A DNA stretch of 64,000 nt from Burkholderiales bacterium (GCA_026417035.1 JAOAEA010000003.1:44980-108979), one strand, 5' to 3'. Positions 2,916 to 50,830 are shown, counted from the stretch's first letter. The notes: generated by a model from the letters alone, not told the origin. Numbers and translations: made by a program.

Positions 2916-4117
2916 CCGCGGGAGGGAGCGTCCGCGGGCGGCTCGCCGCAGCGCTCCTCGCCGCCGCCGCGGCGCTCGCCGCCGCCCCGGCGGCGCCGGG
3001 GGAAAAGGAAGCGCTCGACGCGCTGCGCAAGCGGCTCGAACACCTGCGCAGCGAGATCGCGAGCGCCGAAGGCAGCCGCACCGAGGCCGCGGACCAGCTG
3101 CGCGAGTCCGAGTCGGCGATCTCCGAAGCGAACCGGGCCCTCGCGGAGATCGGCAACGCCCTCGCGGCCGCCCGGGCGGAGCTGCGGGCAGTCGAAGCCG
3201 AGGCCGCGCGGGTCGGCGGCGAAAAGGCGGTGCGCGAAGCCGAGCTCGCACGCATGCTGCACGCCCGCTACGTCGCGCACCGGCCGGGCCCCCTCGCGCT
3301 CCTACTCTCCGGCGAGGATCCCAACCGGATCGCCCGGGAGCTCGTCTACGCCGGCTATCTCTCGCGCGCCCATGCGGAGCTCGTGCGGGCCCTCGAGACC
3401 GACCGGCAGCGGCTCACGGAGCTCGCGGAGCGGGCGCGGGAGAAGGACACGGAGCTCGCCAGCCTCGAGCGGGCGCAGCGGGCGGAGCGCGAGCGCCTCG
3501 TCCGCGAGCAGGCCGCCCGCCGCGCCGTGCTCGCCCGGGTGTCCGACCAGCTTCGCAAACAGCGGCGCGAGCTCGCGACCCTCGAGCGGGACGAGAAGCG
3601 GCTGGAGCGGCTCGTCGCGAACCTCGCCCGGGCGGCGCGGCCGCCGGTGCCCGCGCCGCCCCGCGGGGAAAAGCCCTTGGCGCGGAATGACAAAGTTCCT
3701 GAGCCCGGGGCCGAGGCGGGCGTATTCTCGGCGCTCAAGGGGCGGTTGCGGCTGCCGGTCCGCGGGGAACTCTCGGGCCGTTACGGCGCTCCACGGGAGG
3801 GCGGCCTCGCGTGGAAAGGCCTTTTCCTGCGGGCGCCCGAAGGCGAAGAGGTGCGCGCGGTCGCCGCGGGACGGGTGGTGTTCGCGGACTGGCTGCGCGG
3901 CTTCGGCAACCTCCTCGTGCTCGACCACGGGCAGGGCTACCTCACGATCTACGGGCACAACCAGGCCGTGCTGAAGCGGCCGGGCGATGCGGTGCACGGC
4001 GGCGAGGTCGTGGCGACGGTCGGCGCGACCGGGGGCGCCGAGGAATCGGGCTTATACTTCGAGATTCGCGATCAGGGGCGGCCGGTCGACCCGATGGCGT
4101 GGGTGAACACAAGGTAG
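2912..4117 (+). CDS. envC: murein hydrolase activator EnvC-like (coiled coil + M23/LytM peptidase domain)
   Basis: This is the C-terminal part of the 1859..4117 ORF. It has a signal-like N-terminus ([18 protein letters not shown]), a long coiled coil and a LytM domain ([19 protein letters not shown]...GLYFEIR). I chose the TTG start at 2912, which overlaps the gpmA stop (cTTGA). The start is uncertain. Confidence 0.8.
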
Positions 4118-5602: not shown

Positions 5603-6388
5603 ATGACCGACGACCAGCTGCTCCGCTACTCGCGACACATCCTGCTGCCCGAGGTCGGCGTGGAGGGCCAGGAGCGCATCGTGCGCTCGCGGGCGCTCGT
5701 GATCGGCGCCGGCGGGCTCGGATCGCCGGCAGCGCTCTACCTCGCCACCGCGGGGGTGGGGACGCTCGCGCTCGCCGACGGCGACACGGTCGACCTCACG
5801 AACCTGCAGCGCCAGATCCTGCACACCACGCCCGCGATCGGCCGGCCCAAAGTGGAGTCCGGACGCGACACCCTCGCGCTCGTCAACCCGGAAGTGAAGG
5901 TCGTCGCGATCGCCGAGCGCCTTTCGGGTGAGCGCCTCGACGCGGAAGTCGGTGCGGCGGACGTGGTGCTCGACTGCTCGGACAACTTCGCGACGCGGCA
6001 CGCGGTCAACCGCGCTTGCGTCGCCCATCGCAAGCCCCTCGTTTCCGGCGCCGGTGTGCGCTTCGACGGGCAGGTGAGCGTGTTCGACCTGCGCCGCGAC
6101 GACGCGCCCTGCTACAACTGCCTCTTCCCGGAGGACGCGGAAACCGAAGAGCTGCGCTGCGCGGTGATGGGCGTGTTCGCGCCGCTCGTGGGCATCATCG
6201 GGGCGACGCAGGCGGCCGAGGCGCTCAAAGTGCTGGCCGGCGTCGGCGAGCCGCTCGTCGGGAGGCTCCTGCTCCTCGATGCGCTCGCGATGCAGTGGCG
6301 CGCGATCCGCATCCGCAAGGATCCGGGCTGCGCGGTCTGCGGGGTCAGAGGGCAGAGGACAGAGGACAGAGGACAGACGAAAGCCTGA
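5603..6388 (+). CDS. moeB: molybdopterin-synthase adenylyltransferase MoeB (ThiF/MoeB family)
   Basis: 261 aa with LLRYSRHILLPEVGVEGQERI, the GAGGLGSP nucleotide loop and two CxxC pairs (CYNC, CAVC). The last ~13 codons (RGQRTEDRGQTKA) are encoded by the heptamer repeat element. Confidence 0.85.
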   Translation: MTDDQLLRYSRHILLPEVGVEGQERIVRSRALVIGAGGLGSPAALYLATAGVGTLALADGDTVDLTNLQRQILHTTPAIGRPKVESGRDTLALVNPEVKVVAIAERLSGERLDAEVGAADVVLDCSDNFATRHAVNRACVAHRKPLVSGAGVRFDGQVSVFDLRRDDAPCYNCLFPEDAETEELRCAVMGVFAPLVGIIGATQAAEALKVLAGVGEPLVGRLLLLDALAMQWRAIRIRKDPGCAVCGVRGQRTEDRGQTKA

Positions 6389-6441
6389 GGACGGTGACCG
6401 CCCCCCTCCGCTCGCGCAAGCCTTCAGTCCTCTGTCCTCAG
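6345..6441. repeat. heptamer-array inverted-repeat element, copy 1
   Basis: Left arm is five tandem 7-mers: CAGAGGG, CAGAGGA x3, CAGACGA (6346-6380), then AAGCC. After a ~35-nt spacer comes AAGCC plus TTCAGTC CTCTGTC CTCAG, the complementary units. It lies between convergent moeB and slmA and contains both stop codons. Confidence 0.8.
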
Positions 6442-7028
6442 GCGAGCAGCGGCCACTGCTTGTCCCAGAGCTCCATCGGCTTCTTCTTGAAGCCGCTCTT
6501 CGCGAACTGCGACCAGCGGCCGATGACGTAGCAGAGCATGAGGTTCGCCTGCGCCGCCGGGTCGGGGGCCGCGGCGGGGGTACCCTCGGCGGGCGCGGGC
6601 GTCTGGGTCGCCGCGACGCGCAGCGACTGCTTGAGCGTCGCCTCGAGGCGGTCCTGCAGCGCGTTCACCCGCGCCTGCAGCCGCTCGTCCTCGTTCATGA
6701 GCGCATCCCCGATGAGCACGCGCGTCATACCCGGGTTCTTCTCGGCGAAGCCGAGCAGCATGGCGACGATTGCATGCGCCTGTTTGGCGCCGTTCTCCTC
6801 CTCCGCGACGATCTTGTTCGCGAGCCCGAAGACGGCGCCCTCGATGAACTCGATCAGGCCCTCGAACATCTGCGCCTTGCTCGCGAAGTGGCGGTAGAGG
6901 GCCGCCTCGGAAACGTCGAGCCGCTTGGCGAGCGCCGCGGTGGTGATCTTCTCGCCCTTGGGATCCTCGAGCATCTGCGCGAGGACCTGGAGGATCTGGA
7001 GCTTGCGCTCGCCGGTGCGGGTCGCCAT
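6438..7028 (-). CDS. slmA: nucleoid occlusion factor SlmA (TetR family)
   Basis: 196 aa. ITTAALAKRLDVSEAALYRHFASKAQMFEGLIEFIE is close to the E. coli SlmA HTH region, and similarity continues through GFAEKNPGMTRVL. Confidence 0.82.
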   Translation of the reverse strand: MATRTGERKLQILQVLAQMLEDPKGEKITTAALAKRLDVSEAALYRHFASKAQMFEGLIEFIEGAVFGLANKIVAEEENGAKQAHAIVAMLLGFAEKNPGMTRVLIGDALMNEDERLQARVNALQDRLEATLKQSLRVAATQTPAPAEGTPAAAPDPAAQANLMLCYVIGRWSQFAKSGFKKKPMELWDKQWPLLA

Positions 7029-7132
7029 GGAGCCTCCTTGCCGCCGGGGTCGGCGTTCGCGGGGGACGGGCCGATTCTAGCCGATGCCGCGCTCCGGGGT
7101 GAGCGCTTGCCCACCGGCGAGGCCCCGTCGCC

Positions 7133-7780
7133 TCAACGCCGGGCGAGATCGTCGGCGAGGCGCCGCAGCGCGCCGACCGACGCCACACGGACATCGACGT
7201 AAGCCGGCGAGCGCGGCTCGCGCGTCACCCACACGGTTTTCATGCCGAGACGCTTGGCGGTACGCAGGTTCGCGAGGGAGTCCTCGACCATCACCGCGCG
7301 CTCGGGCGGCAGGCGCTCGGCCCGCAGCAGCCGCCGGAACGCCGCCGGGGAAGGCTTCGGCTCGAACCGCACGTGCTCGATCGCGTAGAGGGCGTCGAAC
7401 CACGACTCGAGCCCCAGCACGCGGACGACGGCTTCGGCGTAATGGACCGGCGAGTTGGAGAAAAGAATCTTCCGGCCCGGCAGGCGGCGGATCGCGGCGA
7501 GCGCGGCGGTGTCGGCCACCACCATCCGCTCGAGCTCCGGGAACTGGTGCGTGTGCCAAAGGAAATGGTGCGGGTCGGTCCCGTGGTGGCGCATCAGCCC
7601 GAGCAGCGTCGCGCCGTAGCGGCGCCAGTAGCGCAGGCGCAGCTCGTTGGCGGCCGCGTCGTCGAGCGCGAGGTGCTCGCGCAGGTAAGCCGTCATGCTG
7701 CGGTTGATGTGGGGAAAGACGTGCGGCGACGCGTCGTGCAGCGTGTTGTCGAGGTCGAAGATCCAGGCGGGCTTGCGCAT
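7133..7780 (-). CDS. HAD-superfamily pyrimidine 5'-nucleotidase-like hydrolase
   Basis: The real start is the ATG at 7780 (MRKPAWIFDLDNTLH, DxDxT motif I). It also has motif II (LFSNS) and motif IV (VEDSLANL). The upstream part of the 339-aa track ORF is Arg-rich shadow sequence. Confidence 0.85.
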   Translation of the reverse strand: MRKPAWIFDLDNTLHDASPHVFPHINRSMTAYLREHLALDDAAANELRLRYWRRYGATLLGLMRHHGTDPHHFLWHTHQFPELERMVVADTAALAAIRRLPGRKILFSNSPVHYAEAVVRVLGLESWFDALYAIEHVRFEPKPSPAAFRRLLRAERLPPERAVMVEDSLANLRTAKRLGMKTVWVTREPRSPAYVDVRVASVGALRRLADDLARR

Positions 7781-7860
7781 CGACGCGGTTCCGGCGGCGG
7801 CGGGCGCCGCGATTATCGCGGATCCCGGCCCGGTCCCCGGCTCCGCTAAACTCGCGCGCG

Positions 7861-8337
7861 ATGACAGCCCGGCGCTCGCCGAAGCTCTCGCGCTGGTACA
7901 GCCTCGCGCGCCTCGTCGCGTCGGAAACGGCCGCCGCGCGCGGCATCGACAACACGCCGCCCCCCGAGGTGGTCGCGAACCTGCGCCGCCTCGCGCGCGG
8001 CCTCGACCGCGTGCGCCGCCTCCTCGGCCATCCGCTGGAGATCTCGAGCGGCTACCGCTCCCCCGCCCTGAACGCCGCCGTCGGCGGCGCGTCCGGCTCC
8101 CAGCACACGCAGGGGCTGGCCGTGGACTTCTGTTGCCCCGGGTTCGGCGCACCCCTCGCGGTGGCGGACGCGGTCGCGCGCTCGGACATCGACTACGACA
8201 CGGTGCTCCTCGAATACGGGCGCTGGGTGCACCTCTCGTTCGCGCCTGCGCCCCGCCGGCGCCTGCTCACGATCTACGACGACGGCGCAGGCTATCGGGA
8301 GGGGATCGTGGACGCCTCGGGGCGGCGCCTGGCCTAA
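7861..8337 (+). CDS. peptidase M15A family zinc D-Ala-D-Ala carboxypeptidase/endolysin-like protein
   Basis: 158 aa with ISSGYRSPALNAAVGGASGSQHTQGLAVDF, the typical M15 metal and catalytic motif. Confidence 0.8.
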   Translation: MTARRSPKLSRWYSLARLVASETAAARGIDNTPPPEVVANLRRLARGLDRVRRLLGHPLEISSGYRSPALNAAVGGASGSQHTQGLAVDFCCPGFGAPLAVADAVARSDIDYDTVLLEYGRWVHLSFAPAPRRRLLTIYDDGAGYREGIVDASGRRLA

Positions 8338-8338
8338 G

Positions 8339-8410
8339 TTCAGACGACCGAAGACAGAAGACAGAAAAACCGTTGCGCCCGCAGGGCGCACAAGCCTTCT
8401 GTCCTCTGAA

Positions 8411-8411
<1 letters not shown>
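8339..8411. repeat. heptamer-array inverted-repeat element, copy 2
   Basis: Layout: TTCAGACGA CCGAAGA CAGAAGA CAGAAAA, then a central hairpin tgcgccc-gca-gggcgca, then AAGCC TTCTGTC CTCTGAA. It lies between the convergent M15 peptidase gene and argB. Confidence 0.8.
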
Positions 8412-9980
<1,569 letters not shown>

Positions 9981-26419: not shown

Positions 26420-26622
26420 CTTCAACGCAGAGTCCGCGGAGGACGCCGGGGGCCGCAGAGGATCGCAGACCCGATCCGGGCCGACTCGCGGGATCCGGCG
26501 TTCGCGGCGCGCACGCAGGCGGGTTTCCCGAGCGCGGACATCCGATCCGCCGCCACGGACCGGGGCCGTTCCGGCGCGCCCGCAGAAATCCTTCCGCTGC
26601 CCTCTGCGTTCTCTGCCTCGCA
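26420..26622. repeat. degenerate heptamer/GATCCG-rich intergenic element bounded by an inverted repeat
   Basis: caacgcagag (about 26425-26434) is the reverse complement of ctctgcgttc (about 26603-26612). The interior holds gcagaggatcgcaga and repeated gatccg/ggatcc. The right end, ccttccgctgccctctgcgttctctgcc, resembles the AGCCTTCTGTCCTCTG end of the other copies. Confidence 0.4.
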
Positions 26623-30710: not shown

Positions 30711-30716
30711 CCCCTC

Positions 30717-30780
30717 CCGCTGAGGAGCGCTGCGACCCGCGGGGGCCAGGCTCAGCATGGAATCAACGGCGCTCGCATCG
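30717..30780 (+). promoter_or_regulatory. SAH (S-adenosylhomocysteine) riboswitch
   Basis: ccgcuGAGGAGCGCUGCGACCCGCGGGGGCCAGGCUCAGcauggaaucAACGGCGCUCgc matches the SAH-element core as I remember it (GAGGAGCGCUGC ... AGGCUC ... AACGGCGCUC). It sits upstream of ahcY, the classic context. Confidence 0.8.
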
Positions 30781-30806
30781 GAAACGGTGCGGGCGCTTTT
30801 TCTTTC
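30769..30806 (+). terminator. riboswitch expression-platform intrinsic terminator
   Basis: A 12-bp stem pairs 30769-30780 with 30785-30796 (two G-U pairs). It has a GAAA tetraloop (30781-30784) and is followed by UUUUUCUUUC. The 5' arm overlaps the conserved GGCGCUC of the aptamer. Confidence 0.7.
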
Positions 30807-30916
30807 TGCCCCTGCCGAGGGGCGCTGCAGCCGGCGCGATCTCGCCCGGCGAGGCTCGGCAGGCGTGCGGACCTTCGGTCCAACGGCGCCCGTCGCACGT
30901 CGAAGGAAGTACGACC

Positions 30917-32329
<1,413 letters not shown>

Positions 32330-32414
32330 GCCCGCACCCCCGACCACGCACGCACGGAGGCGCGAAGGGGTCACGGAGCGGCCGTCCGTCTCCGCGTGCC
32401 CTCGCGGTGAAGCC

Positions 32415-47826: not shown

Positions 47827-48882
47827 TCAGCGCAGCGCGGCGTTGAACTCGCGGAGCGCCGCGGCGCCCGGGCAGAGCTCGCGCTCGCCGAGCGAGTTGA
47901 GCGGCGCGTCCACCGTCCCGAGGTGGTAGTGCAGGTCTTCGGCGCGCGCGTCGACGTAGAGCAGCCCCGTGACCACCTCGCCGCGCGCGGCGCGCTCGGC
48001 GAGGTAGTTCATCGCGCGCACGCGGTCGGTCGGGTCGTAGTCCGCAGCGAGCTTGTGCAGGTGCATCACCGAGCCGTCGTGCATCACGACGTCCACCACC
48101 GAGCCGGGCGGATAGTCGGCCGTGACCTCGTCGCGGCGCGGCATGAAGTCGAGCCGGTTCACGGCCTCGTTGTGCGCGCGCACGTAGTCGTAGCTCTTGG
48201 TCGAGCCGGGATGGTTGTTGAACGCGACGCACGGGCTGACGACGTCGATGAACGCTGCGCCGCGGTGCTCGACCGCCGCCTTGATGAGCGGCACGAGCTG
48301 CGCCTTGTCGCCGGAGAAGCTCCGCGCGACGAAGCTCGCGCCGAGCTGCAAGGCGAGGCCGACCAGGTCGATCGGGCTGTCGGTGTTCACGGCGCCGCGC
48401 TTGGACTTCGACCCGCGGTCGGCGGTGGCCGAGAACTGGCCCTTGGTGAGGCCGTACACGCCGTTGTTCTCGACGATGTACACCATGTTCACGCCGCGGC
48501 GCATCGCGTGCGCGAACTGCCCGAGGCCGATCGACGCGGAGTCGCCGTCGCCCGAGACCCCGAGGTACACGAGCTCGCGGTTGGCGAGGCTCGCCCCGGT
48601 GAGCACCGAGGGCATGCGCCCGTGCACGCTGTTGAAGCCGTGCGACTGCCCGAGGAAGTAGGTGGGCGTCTTCGACGAGCAGCCGATGCCGGAGAGCTTG
48701 GCGACGCGGTGCGGCGGGATCGCGAGCTCGAAGAAGGCCTGGATGATCGCCGCGCTGATCGAGTCGTGCCCGCAGCCCGCGCACAGGGTCGAGACGGTCC
48801 CTTCGTAGTCGCGGCGCGTGTAGCCGAGCCGGTTCTGGGGGAGGTCCGGATGGTGCAGCTTCGGCTTGGCGAGATAGGTCAT
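47827..48882 (-). CDS. korB: 2-oxoacid:ferredoxin (acceptor) oxidoreductase beta subunit
   Basis: 351 aa with STLCAGCGHDSI (Fe-S cluster Cys residues) and the TPP motif GDGDSASIGLGQF...VENNGVYGLTKGQ. Confidence 0.93.
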   Translation of the reverse strand: MTYLAKPKLHHPDLPQNRLGYTRRDYEGTVSTLCAGCGHDSISAAIIQAFFELAIPPHRVAKLSGIGCSSKTPTYFLGQSHGFNSVHGRMPSVLTGASLANRELVYLGVSGDGDSASIGLGQFAHAMRRGVNMVYIVENNGVYGLTKGQFSATADRGSKSKRGAVNTDSPIDLVGLALQLGASFVARSFSGDKAQLVPLIKAAVEHRGAAFIDVVSPCVAFNNHPGSTKSYDYVRAHNEAVNRLDFMPRRDEVTADYPPGSVVDVVMHDGSVMHLHKLAADYDPTDRVRAMNYLAERAARGEVVTGLLYVDARAEDLHYHLGTVDAPLNSLGERELCPGAAALREFNAALR

Positions 48883-48885
48883 TCG

Positions 48886-48982
48886 TCAGGATTCGGGATT
48901 CGGGATTCGAGATTCGGGATTGAGGATCGAGGGCGCTGGGGCTAGCCTTCTGTCCTCTGTCTTCTGTCCTCTGTCCTCTGAG
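48886..48982. repeat. double heptamer-array element filling the korA-korB spacer, copy 3
   Basis: Left array: TCAGGAT, TCGGGAT x2, TCGAGAT, TCGGGAT, TGAGGAT (48886-48927). After a spacer comes AGCC and then TTCTGTC CTCTGTC TTCTGTC CTCTGTC CTCTGAG (48948-48982). Confidence 0.85.
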
Positions 48983-50830
48983 CTAGGCCGCGCGGCCGCC
49001 GTGCAGCGGGCGGACGTTCAGGCGGCGCACCTCGGCGGCGACCGCGTCGGTGATGAAGCGCGCGGTGATCGGCGTGCCGTCGTAGTGCAGGATCGGGATC
49101 AGGGTCGCCGGGTTCACGCCGGCGTCGTTGACGAGCAGCGTCTTCAGCTGCGCGTCGCGGTTCTGCTCGACCACGAACACCTCGTCATGCGCGGCGATGA
49201 AATCCGCCACCGACTTGGGGAACGGATAGGCGCGCAGGCGCAGCGCATCCAGGTGCATGCCGCCTTTGGCCAGCATGTCCAGCGCCTCGTCCATGGCCGG
49301 CGTGGTCGAACCGAAATAGATCACCCCGCGCCGCGTCGGCTGCGCGGCCGGGCGCATGATCGGCTGCGGCACCAGGTTGGCGGCGGTGGCGAACTTGCGC
49401 ATCAGCCGCTCCATGTTGTAGAGGTAGTCCGGCCCGCGTTCCGAATAGCGGGCGTAGGCGTCGCGCGTGGTGCCGCGGGTGAAGTAGGCGCCCTTGCTGG
49501 CATGGGTGCCGGGGTAGGTGCGGTAGGGGATGCCGTCGCCGTCCGTGTCGAGGTAACGGCCGAAGTCCTGCCCGGACTCGAGCATCTCGTAGGTCATCAC
49601 CTTGCCGCGGTCGTAGCGCCGCGCGTCGTCCCACTCGAGCGGCTCGCACAGGCGCTCGTTCATGCCGATGTCGAGGTCGGAGAGGACGAACACCGGCGTC
49701 TGCAGGCGTTCGGCGAGGTCGAACGAGAGCGCCGCGAACTCGAAGGCTTCCTTCGGGTCCTCGGGGAAGAGCAGCGGGTGCTTGGTGTCGCCGTGCGAGG
49801 CGTAGGCGCAGGCGAGCACGTCCGACTGCTGGGTGCGCGTCGGCATGCCGGTCGAGGGGCCGCCGCGCTGCACGTCGAAGATCACGGCCGGGATCTCGGC
49901 GAAGTAGGCGAGCCCGATGAACTCCTGCATGAGCGAGATCCCCGGCCCCGAGGTCGCGGTGAACGCGCGCGCGCCGTTCCACCCGGCGCCGATGACGACA
50001 CCGATGGCCGCGAGCTCGTCCTCGGCCTGCACGATCGCGTAGCGCGCGCGGCCGCTGTCGGGGTCGACGCGGAACTTGCGGCAGTGCCGCGCGAACGCCT
50101 CGGCCATGGAGGACGACGGGGTGAGCGGATACCACGCCGCCACCGTCGCGCCACCATAGACGCAGCCGAGCGCGGCCGCACTGTTGCCTTCGATGAAGAT
50201 GCGGTCGCCGACCGCGTCCGAGCGCGCCACGCGCAGCCCGATCGGCCCGCCGAGCCGGTCGCGGGCGTAGGCGTAGCCCATGTGCAGCGCGTGCACGTTG
50301 GGCTGCAGGAGCTTCTCCTTGCCGCGGTACTGCTCGCCGATCAGCTCCGCGATGACGTCGGGCTCGATGCCGAGCAGCGCGGCGAGCGCCCCGACGTAGA
50401 TGATGTTCTTGAAGAGCTGGCGCTCGCGCGCGTCGCTGTACGCGTCGTTGCAGATCGCGGTGAGCGGCATGCCGATCACAGTGATGTCGTCGCGGAACTT
50501 CGACGCCGGCAGCGGTTTCGTGGAGTCGTAGAAGAGATACCCCCCCGGGTCGATCTCGGCGACGTCGCGGTCCCAGGTCTGGGGATTCATGGCGACCATG
50601 AGGTCCGCCCCGCCGCGGCGCCCGAGCCAGCCCTGCTCGGAGACGCGCACCTCGTACCAGGTCGGCAGACCCTGGATGTTCGAAGGGAAGATGTTGCGCG
50701 GGCTGATCGGCACGCCCATGCGCATGATCGACTTCGCGAAGAGCGTGTTCGCCGAGGCCGAGCCCGACCCGTTCACGTTCGCGAACTTCACCACGAAGTC
50801 GTTGACCGATTCGATGCGCTTCGCTGCCAT
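48983..50830 (-). CDS. korA: 2-oxoacid:ferredoxin (acceptor) oxidoreductase alpha subunit
   Basis: 615 aa with the typical KorA N-terminus (VVKFANVNGSGSASANTLF) and YPLTPSS. It is followed by korB. Confidence 0.93.
   Translation of the reverse strand: MAAKRIESVNDFVVKFANVNGSGSASANTLFAKSIMRMGVPISPRNIFPSNIQGLPTWYEVRVSEQGWLGRRGGADLMVAMNPQTWDRDVAEIDPGGYLFYDSTKPLPASKFRDDITVIGMPLTAICNDAYSDARERQLFKNIIYVGALAALLGIEPDVIAELIGEQYRGKEKLLQPNVHALHMGYAYARDRLGGPIGLRVARSDAVGDRIFIEGNSAAALGCVYGGATVAAWYPLTPSSSMAEAFARHCRKFRVDPDSGRARYAIVQAEDELAAIGVVIGAGWNGARAFTATSGPGISLMQEFIGLAYFAEIPAVIFDVQRGGPSTGMPTRTQQSDVLACAYASHGDTKHPLLFPEDPKEAFEFAALSFDLAERLQTPVFVLSDLDIGMNERLCEPLEWDDARRYDRGKVMTYEMLESGQDFGRYLDTDGDGIPYRTYPGTHASKGAYFTRGTTRDAYARYSERGPDYLYNMERLMRKFATAANLVPQPIMRPAAQPTRRGVIYFGSTTPAMDEALDMLAKGGMHLDALRLRAYPFPKSVADFIAAHDEVFVVEQNRDAQLKTLLVNDAGVNPATLIPILHYDGTPITARFITDAVAAEVRRLNVRPLHGGRAA

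Follow-up and report, generated by a model that had tools for sequence, protein, structure and literature searches.

A stretch of 64,000 nt from a Burkholderiales bacterium (GCA_026417035.1, JAOAEA010000003.1:44980-108979; 72% G+C), here called the window, carries at least four copies of an intergenic element built from tandem 7-nt repeats (heptamers). Each copy has a 5' purine- or G-rich arm, a copy-specific centre and a 3' pyrimidine- or C-rich arm. Units of the 5' arm consist of CAG followed by four mostly purine bases or are of the GGGATTC type, and the centre is short and sometimes a GC hairpin. The element belongs to a described class of over-represented bacterial heptameric simple repeats, to which our analysis adds a near-absolute polarity, concerted arms, stop-codon adjacency, CAG+purine units in multiple phyla and a copy inside the korA-korB operon. 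With a probability of roughly 0.55, we favour the reading that units of this heptamer element turn over by slippage, that its arms are homogenised and that it acts as an RNA 3'-end or intercistronic hairpin.

In many bacteria, no long simple repeats are as over-represented as the heptameric ones, whose origin and role have lacked an explanation since they came to notice around 1990. The window and its relatives offer a natural experiment, as genomes about 5% apart differ at the same sites in unit, copy number and even repeat family, with both arms changing together. The repeat supplies a protein tail and two stop codons, and one copy split the coupled korA-korB pair. Near-absolute polarity, stop-codon adjacency and the recurrence of CAG+purine units across phyla are constraints that any mechanism must meet.

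Heptamer elements of the window

The original prediction, made from the sequence alone, had placed tandem CAGAGGA-type heptamers at 6346-6380 and complementary units about 35 nt further on, between moeB and an slmA-like gene, and had proposed a dispersed family of similar copies. Tandem Repeats Finder, shuffled sequences and arm complementarity all confirmed the first claim. The program called period-7 arrays at 6346-6377 (4.6 copies, 96% matches, unit CAGAGGA), 8341-8366 (3.7 copies, CAGAAGA), 48889-48921 (4.7 copies, GGATTCG) and 48949-48980 (4.6 copies, TCTGTCC). Allowing up to three mismatches, the 21-mer (CAGAGGA)3 matched the window six times and 100 dinucleotide-preserving shuffles not once. 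Inverted arms pair 6355-6370 with 6424-6439 in element 1 (16 nt, 94% complementary), 8337-8353 with 8396-8412 in element 2 (17 nt, 88%) and 26427-26449 with 26594-26616 in a decayed element (23 nt, 74%). All four copies occupy spacers between open reading frames (ORFs), and their parts are:

6345-6380, plus strand: purine-rich (R) arm of element 1, T followed by CAGAGGG, CAGAGGA (three times) and CAGACGA; codes for MoeB residues 248-259
6381-6417: centre of element 1, with the moeB stop codon TGA (6386-6388) inside; no U-tract, and no terminator-like site called
6418-6442, plus strand: pyrimidine-rich (Y) arm of element 1, AAGCC, TTCAGTC, CTCTGTC, CTCAGG; on the minus strand CCTGAGGACAGAGGACTGAAGGCTT
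8339-8369, plus strand: R arm of element 2, TT followed by CAGACGA, CCGAAGA, CAGAAGA and CAGAAAA; begins 1 nt after the stop codon TAA of the peptidase M15 gene
8374-8390, minus strand: centre of element 2, GC hairpin TGCGCCCTGCGGGCGCA and then ACGGTTTTTC; terminator-like site for argB
8392-8410, plus strand: Y arm of element 2, AAGCC, TTCTGTC, CTCTGAA; directly abuts the argB stop codon
48886-48933, plus strand: G-rich arm of element 3, TCAGGAT and then (TCGGGAT)n, i.e. GGGATTC units, a second heptamer family
48944-48981, plus strand: Y arm of element 3, AGCC followed by TTCTGTC, CTCTGTC, TTCTGTC, CTCTGTC and CTCTGA; on the minus strand (CAGAGGA)n
26420-26622: decayed element, bounded by the dapF start and by the stop of a lipid A acyltransferase gene; degenerate units, R-like on the left (GCAGAGT, CGGAGGA, GCAGAGGAT) and Y-like on the right (CCCTCTG, CGTTCTCTGCC)

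Folding of 6340-6445 gave -55.9 kcal/mol for the minus strand (z score -3.35) and -46.7 kcal/mol for the plus strand (z -1.74), and for 8335-8415 the z scores were -4.5 (plus) and -5.4 (minus). Element 3 forms no hairpin (z +0.8 and +1.2), and a search of its region (48850-49010) for an inverted repeat found none. The proposed architecture and dispersed family were confirmed, the latter extending to 8339-8410, 48886-48981 and, in degenerate form, 26420-26622. The two arms need not be complementary, however: in the third copy, the left arm (48886-48933) is made of a different heptamer, GGATTCG, and is not the complement of the right arm. A common end of all copies, also proposed, was not found, as AGCCTTCTGTCCTCTGA is exact only at 8392-8410 and 48944-48981 and element 1 has AAGCCTTCAGTCCTCTGTCCTCAGG. 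Similarly, the AAGCC motifs described as a pair do not mirror each other, the left-arm motif not being the mirror image of the right-arm one. The centres of the window copies are mutually unrelated, and what the copies have in common are the heptamer arms and a short AGCC boundary.

Turnover of arms and gene ends

Units have been added, lost and exchanged for units of another sequence or even another family between genomes only 4-7% diverged, and a change in one arm of an element tends to be accompanied by a change in the other. Heptamer copy number, which the original prediction had suggested comparing, differs between relatives: the window and locus L001 (assembly GCA_964416465.1) are 93-96% identical over 6.5 kb and differ at moeB-slmA and M15-argB, the alignment breaking exactly within the M15-argB element. 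The arms compare as follows:

moeB-slmA, left arm: five CAGAGGA units in the window, 3.9 copies of GAGGACG (CGGAGGA units) in L001
moeB-slmA, right arm: two to three units in the window, 4.1 copies of CTTCCGT in L001
M15-argB, Y arm: two type-A units in the window, 17 ATCCTGA units in L001

At moeB-slmA of L001, the change from CAG to CGG is present in both arms and the long hairpin is retained (-65.5 kcal/mol, z -4.9). In 95 pairs collected with a loose pattern, the arms of one element agree at 5.62 of 7 positions, compared to 5.18 of 7 for shuffled partners (z 7.5). Since the arms change together, most elements keep a long stem-loop. The near-identical contigs L002-L004 show no array polymorphism, a comparison that is uninformative because they carry only decayed arrays. 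A separate observation comes from a contig of a Chthonomonadaceae metagenome-assembled genome (MAG; L052), where two elements (1654-1773 and 3220-3329) have the common centre motif A[AT]TGCCCTGCTG and differ in their units, TAGACGG / CCGTCTA in one and CAGAAGA / TCTTCTG in the other, with matching arms within each element.

The genes flanking elements 1 to 3 are:

5603-6388, plus strand: moeB (ORF call)
6438-7028, minus strand: gene of an SlmA-like TetR regulator (ORF call)
7861-8337, plus strand: peptidase M15 gene (ORF call); stop codon TAA at 8335-8337
beginning at 8411, minus strand: argB; stop codon CTA at 8411-8413
47830-48882, minus strand: korB, beta subunit of 2-oxoglutarate:ferredoxin oxidoreductase; start codon at 48880-48882
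48986-50830, minus strand: korA, alpha subunit of the same enzyme; stop codon at 48983-48985

The 14 C-terminal residues of MoeB (248-261, VRGQRTEDRGQTKA, 6344-6385) are translated from the array. This agrees with the original prediction, which had also put the moeB stop codon inside the left array; the codon is in fact found just past it (6386-6388) and is still element-derived, so that residues 248-261 are read from the repeat. The stop codon of the slmA-like gene does lie in the right arm, as proposed: it is the TCA at 6438-6440 (minus strand), the TGA within the terminal CTGAGGA unit. Most of the best 120 MoeB homologues measure 247-252 residues, with 0-6 of them beyond the second C-x-x-C-G motif, and among these 120 a clearly similar tail (IRGRRTEDRGPAEDTPH) occurs only in P0001 (97% identity), whose gene also enters heptamers. 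The orthologue comparison thus shows the tail to be lineage-specific. In the syntenic loci L125 and L126 (MoeB about 88% identical), the moeB-slmA spacer measures 28-31 nt, is free of arrays and has its own stop codons and different last codons, which indicates that the element replaced the entire spacer including both stop codons. At this site, the arrays of L003 and L127 are decayed.

CAGAGGA and its complement are free of stop codons in every reading frame, and a frame that enters an array therefore passes through. Because the elements take up all of a spacer, as far as the stop or start codons on either side, a gene's reading frame can be lengthened by them or its stop codon captured. The MoeB tail RGQRTEDRGQTKA is a by-product of the element and not a functional domain. 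Arrays of this kind cause annotation artefacts such as extended C-termini and shifted stops.

At korA-korB, the junctions of relatives can be compared directly:

L361 (KorB identity 82%): ATGA overlap
L360 (KorB identity 91%): 2-nt spacer
L359 (KorB identity 90%): 54-nt element of GGGATTC-type units, homologous to the C-rich half of the window copy
window: 97 nt, CAGAGGA units having taken the place of the purine arm

Judging from these junctions, the element was gained where no spacer or terminator existed before. It is compatible with operon expression and now supplies the korB leader: on the minus strand, (CAGAGGA)n begins 1 nt after the korA stop codon, and (GAATCCC)5 ends 3-6 nt before the korB ATG, with no Shine-Dalgarno sequence visible. 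The gain argues against a general terminator role as well as against purely local slippage. Among the KorB homologues, P0124 (416 aa) is 65 residues longer than the otherwise invariant 351 and has an internal tandem duplication (ANRDL.YLGVSGDGDSASIGFGQ..., twice), which may be an assembly artefact or real.

A bidirectional terminator had been proposed for element 1. In a general form, the element would primarily be a bidirectional intrinsic terminator, with the purine/A-rich and pyrimidine/U-rich arms as A-tract and U-tract around a hairpin, an arrangement that would also explain the order of the arms. We consider this improbable. Element 2 fits, having a terminator-like hairpin followed by T5 at 8374-8390 on the argB (minus) strand. 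At least one gene 3' end adjoins each of three window copies out of four, and the same is true of many copies elsewhere; the innermost units frequently read CAGAAAA / TTTTCTG, and the polarity makes the RNA 3' of the stem pyrimidine-rich whichever strand is read. However, elements 1 and 3 have no U-run and no terminator was called in them, and element 3, which lies between two subunit genes of one enzyme that overlap in relatives, cannot be a strong terminator. A copy in a Planctomycetaceae MAG (L007) ends right at a ribosome-binding site and ATG, and the A/T-rich trend of inner units is weak (A fraction 0.52 in the innermost unit vs 0.43-0.47). A terminator role thus seems supported for the argB hairpin only, and what had been proposed as bidirectional fits this hairpin on the minus strand only.

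Polarity, spread and mechanism

Arm pairs at most 250 nt apart follow the order purine-then-pyrimidine in 39 cases and the reverse order in one. A unit-agnostic period-7 finder gave the same picture, with purine-first to reverse ratios of 22:1, 7:0 and 6:0. The rule also holds where the arms are non-complementary and of different families, as in element 3 and the M15-argB element of L001. At distances of 100-2500 nt both orders are equally frequent (10 each), so the polarity is a property of the compact element. Of 142 arrays, each read along its purine-rich strand, 48 begin no more than 30 nt (mostly 0-6 nt) past the stop of an ORF on that strand, and only 14 have a convergent stop at their 3' end; a divergent gene start lies at the 5' side in 26 cases, and starts at the 3' side number 19. 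Given the polarity, this stop-codon adjacency would result from elements that fill spacers up to the gene boundaries. Centres are copy-specific (median fold z -1.1, z < -2 in only 34%), and units vary mainly at their last three positions (CAGAGGA, CAGAAGA, CAGAAGT, CAGAAAA, CAGAGGT, CGGAAGA, TAGACGG). In four Gallionella / Nitrosomonadales MAG loci (L029, L071, L106, L112), the centres of 59-67 nt contain two GC hairpins with 3-nt loops and about 12 AT-rich bases between them, which hints at a conserved double-hairpin module in this clade.

A scan of one genome per species with CAGARGACAGARGACAGA gave at least 120 matches. About 70 would be expected by chance in the whole 596-Gb collection and single matches therefore mean little, but many loci among the matches listed hold multiple tandem matches and inverted pairs. 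Loci that we read directly always consist of a purine arm, a short centre and a pyrimidine arm. CAG+purine units with this architecture are found in MAGs labelled as at least seven phyla (Planctomycetota, Acidobacteriota, Armatimonadota (Chthonomonadaceae), Nitrospinota, Chloroflexota, Desulfobacterota and Pseudomonadota), as well as in viral contigs; carriers among the Pseudomonadota are many and include Gallionella, Accumulibacter, Lysobacterales, Sedimenticola and Nitrosomonadales. The L007 copy, which abuts the ribosome-binding site and ATG mentioned above, has about 33 consecutive base pairs (z -12).

In viral contigs, CAGARGA forms 110 stretches, and composition-matched heptamers form 60, 36 and 50; raw abundance is therefore only 2-3-fold special. 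Where inverted pairs occurred at control loci, they were again made of CAG+purine units (CAGGAGA, CAGGGGA), and the composition-matched CGAARGA yielded arrays and no inverted pairs. These controls bear on the proposal that the arrays are neutral by-products of heptamer-biased replication slippage, with neither function nor mobility. Heptamers are over-represented among long simple repeats in many bacteria, a bias for which a polymerase footprint has been suggested as the cause (as cited in PMC4692102 and PMC4679880), and unit number differs among close relatives. The 7-bp variable-number tandem repeats ms24 and ms33 of Coxiella burnetii, whose primers contain GGACAGAGGACAGT, likewise vary between isolates, ms24 from 7 to 27 units (PMC1488860). 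They resemble our arrays in having the same unit in the abutting primers, and these loci are known only as typing markers, a use that our arrays would also suit. Purely neutral slippage nevertheless seems very improbable to us, since several loci within 64 kb, and many phyla, have the same unit, the arm order is biased 39:1, arms are alike within elements (z 7.5), an element arose at a 2-nt spacer and CGAARGA arrays lack inverted pairs.

Polarity and spread would suit a non-autonomous mobile element of MITE or REPIN type with heptamer-built inverted termini that is moved in trans, its polarity being a fixed orientation of the terminal repeats. We regard this as possible if rather unlikely. Besides the 39:1 ratio, eight of eight arm ends in this lineage begin with TCAG, different loci, and also the metagenomic contigs L241, L288 and L354, have GAAGGCT / AGCCTTC as their inner boundary, a copy was gained at korA-korB, which is spacer-less in relatives, the moeB-slmA site is empty in L125 and L126, and the same architecture is present in many phyla and viral contigs. 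However, comparison of filled and empty sites at moeB-slmA and korA-korB revealed no target-site duplication, the centres of different copies are unrelated, unit number and sequence vary freely, and the arms may belong to different heptamer families. Across taxa, a T precedes the first unit in no more than about 8 of 22 cases, and no candidate transposase turned up, although no search was aimed at one.

A bolder and still more doubtful proposal is that all CAG+purine pairs form one widely distributed class of self-propagating palindromic elements with an intrinsic direction, recognised or generated by a conserved trans-acting activity. If true, such elements could insert precisely between a stop codon and the gene that follows, even splitting the coupled korA/korB pair and replacing a ribosome-binding site, and the heptamer-repeat puzzle would reflect a mobile or enzyme-templated system instead of polymerase slippage.

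The reading that we prefer, slippage-driven turnover of a heptamer hairpin, would work as follows. Unit number would shift through replication slippage, and the arms would be homogenised via template switching within the element or by selection for pairing. The element is presumably co-transcribed with its neighbours, and its stem-loop directly after the stop codon would form a 3'-end or intercistronic hairpin. Where the centre offers a hairpin and a U-run, as at argB, it may act as a terminator, and elsewhere it could stabilise mRNA ends or serve as a processing site, comparable to REP in E. coli. The function would thus most likely be that of a hypermutable, self-homogenising stem-loop in 3' untranslated or intercistronic RNA, with the REP-like stem-loop at such positions as the best functional analogy.

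Several points weigh against this reading. Element 3 and the M15-argB element of L001 have non-complementary arms and no stable fold and still keep the polarity, so hairpin formation cannot be the whole story; nor does it alone explain why the reverse polarity is missing. Slippage leaves unexplained why one unit is common to many loci, and in-situ slippage does not account for the gain at korA-korB, where relatives have an ATGA overlap or a 2-nt spacer. Furthermore, central hairpins are not general (z < -2 in 34% of centres), and the role at the RNA level is one that we infer.

Four other ideas were set aside. An origin of the arms from the A- and U-tracts flanking terminators is weakly supported by the inner-unit trend (0.52 vs 0.43-0.47) and contradicted by the korA-korB gain. 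Shine-Dalgarno mimicry fails as a general explanation because the commonest unit, CAGAAGA, has no GAGG. CsrA-type GGA binding was considered and dropped, and intrastrand-triplex (BoxC/PIT) elements have a different motif (PMC4666352).

The searches also brought up arrays in other settings. In a MAG labelled Actinomycetota (L030, 5721-6226), (CAGAGGA)4 and (TCCTCTG)6 stand on either side of a 429-nt segment and could form a long-range stem around a small gene; by eye, the longest open frame of this segment resembles the four-helix-bundle protein of 23S rRNA intervening sequences. In a beta-proteobacterial MAG (L041, 3834-4074), inverted heptamer arrays surround a putative tRNA gene beside another tRNA end, an arrangement that resembles a processing stem. 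Heptamer arrays at extreme contig ends (L017, L032, L039, L073, L076, L199) suggest that arrays break short-read assemblies. A metagenome scan with the motif AGCCTTCTGTCCTCTGW mostly retrieved an unrelated repeat from low-G+C host-associated samples, the relevant loci being only L241, L288, L354, L330 and L309. In many of these low-G+C contigs (loci L240-L344), the 17-mer AGCCTTCTGTCCTCTGT sits in a conserved repeat (...GACTCAGCCTTCTGTCCTCTGTGGGATGGTAAAATGAG...), which is probably a eukaryotic interspersed repeat and unrelated to the heptamer elements.

Known repeat classes and the genomic setting

The original prediction took the element to be of an unrecognised kind, but the same architecture and rules have been published for heptamers of Xanthomonas and Nostoc (Rehm et al., 2015; PMC4692102). 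That study described GGGAATC in Xanthomonas (183-186 per genome) and GGGGA(C/T)T in Nostoc, with 89-93% of the Xanthomonas repeats intergenic and 70-75 convergent inverted pairs per genome. Two Xanthomonas species mostly share the intergenic sites, with extensive variation in length and sequence; repeats are depleted between divergent genes, the purine/G-rich strand lies downstream of a gene on its coding strand, and no function was identified. The paper also cites a 2007 finding that heptamers are an over-represented long simple repeat in many bacteria.

The window arrays agree with the definition of this class as a tandem 7-nt unit present at least twice (3.7-4.7 copies in four arrays). They are intergenic by ORF ends, form convergent inverted pairs and occupy the same sites with differing length and sequence, as seen when the window is compared with L001, L003, L127, L125 and L126. 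The gene-side preference is also found, with 48 stops and 26 starts at the 5' side of arrays against 14 and 19 at the 3' side. The GGGATTC arm of the window fits the heterogeneous (GGGANTN)n pattern of PMC4692102. In contrast to the Xanthomonas and Nostoc repeats, the main unit here is CAGAGGA / CAGAAGA, the host is a Burkholderiales bacterium of 72% G+C, the CAG+purine unit occurs in many phyla and one element can combine two unit families. Four or more G3 tracts, as needed for a G-quadruplex (G4), are not present: CAGAGGA contains no GGG, and the arm at 48886-48933 has only three clean in-register GGG tracts. As CAGAGGA and CAGAAGA have no G3 tract, the G-quadruplex reading does not apply to them. 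G3 tracts define the published G4 subtype and not the whole heptamer class.

Cyanobacterial STRR have the units CCCCAGT, TTGGTCA and CAACAGT, which differ from CAGAGGA. Like our element, STRR and the heptamers of Mrazek et al. (2007) are tandem, dispersed, mainly non-coding and hypervariable (as cited in PMC4692102 and PMC4679880); inverted pairing and stop-codon adjacency do not figure in these descriptions, as far as the accounts available to us extend. The TAACTGA repeats of marine Beggiatoaceae often lie directly upstream of start codons without a ribosome-binding site (MacGregor, 2015; PMC4679880). They share with our element a patchy cross-phylum occurrence of heptamer arrays, the position before starts that have no such site (korB here) and an occasional overlap with stop codons. 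Unlike the units here, which are free of stop codons and typically inverted, TAACTGA has stops in all frames and is inverted in one of 170 sets (PMC4679880).

With REP, BIME and REPIN sequences, our element has in common that it is extragenic, present in many copies, located at gene 3' ends and in operon interiors, and folds into imperfect palindromic stem-loops with no target-site duplications. In Enterobacteria and Pseudomonas, these sequences are transcribed and consist of a conserved 20-40 nt sequence and not of tandem heptamers. Here, by contrast, centres are unrelated and arm lengths vary. The original prediction was right that the defining features of REP, MITE and CRISPR are missing: the window copies have no conserved 20-40 nt palindrome in common, which excludes an identity with REP, BIME or REPIN; their bodies are unrelated and filled and empty sites differ by no target-site duplication, unlike in a MITE; and the units are 7 nt, head-to-tail and spacer-less, unlike a CRISPR array. 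For the elements, Rfam gave no match at gathering score, none at E ≤ 1 in 6250-8480, and in 48800-49060 at E ≤ 1 only two chance-level matches (17-19 bits, with cut-offs of 71-87).

Around element 1, the gene order is C-terminal processing protease, moeB, slmA-like gene, HAD hydrolase, peptidase M15 gene and argB. Elsewhere in the window, two S-adenosylhomocysteine (SAH) riboswitch aptamers (RF01057) lie in tandem on the plus strand at 30716-30781 and 30811-30898 (50.5 and 48.3 bits), upstream of ahcY (30917-32329). A GC stem and a T-run (GCGGGCGCTTTTTCTTTC) come after the first aptamer, and the tandem arrangement seems unusual. The sequence downstream of ahcY (32330-32400, plus strand) contains an imperfect purine/pyrimidine palindrome in a decayed state (CACGGAGGCGCGAAGGGGTCACGGAGCGGCCGTCCGTCTCCGCGTG), similar to the degenerate CACGGAGG arms that L003 and L127 have in their M15-argB spacers.

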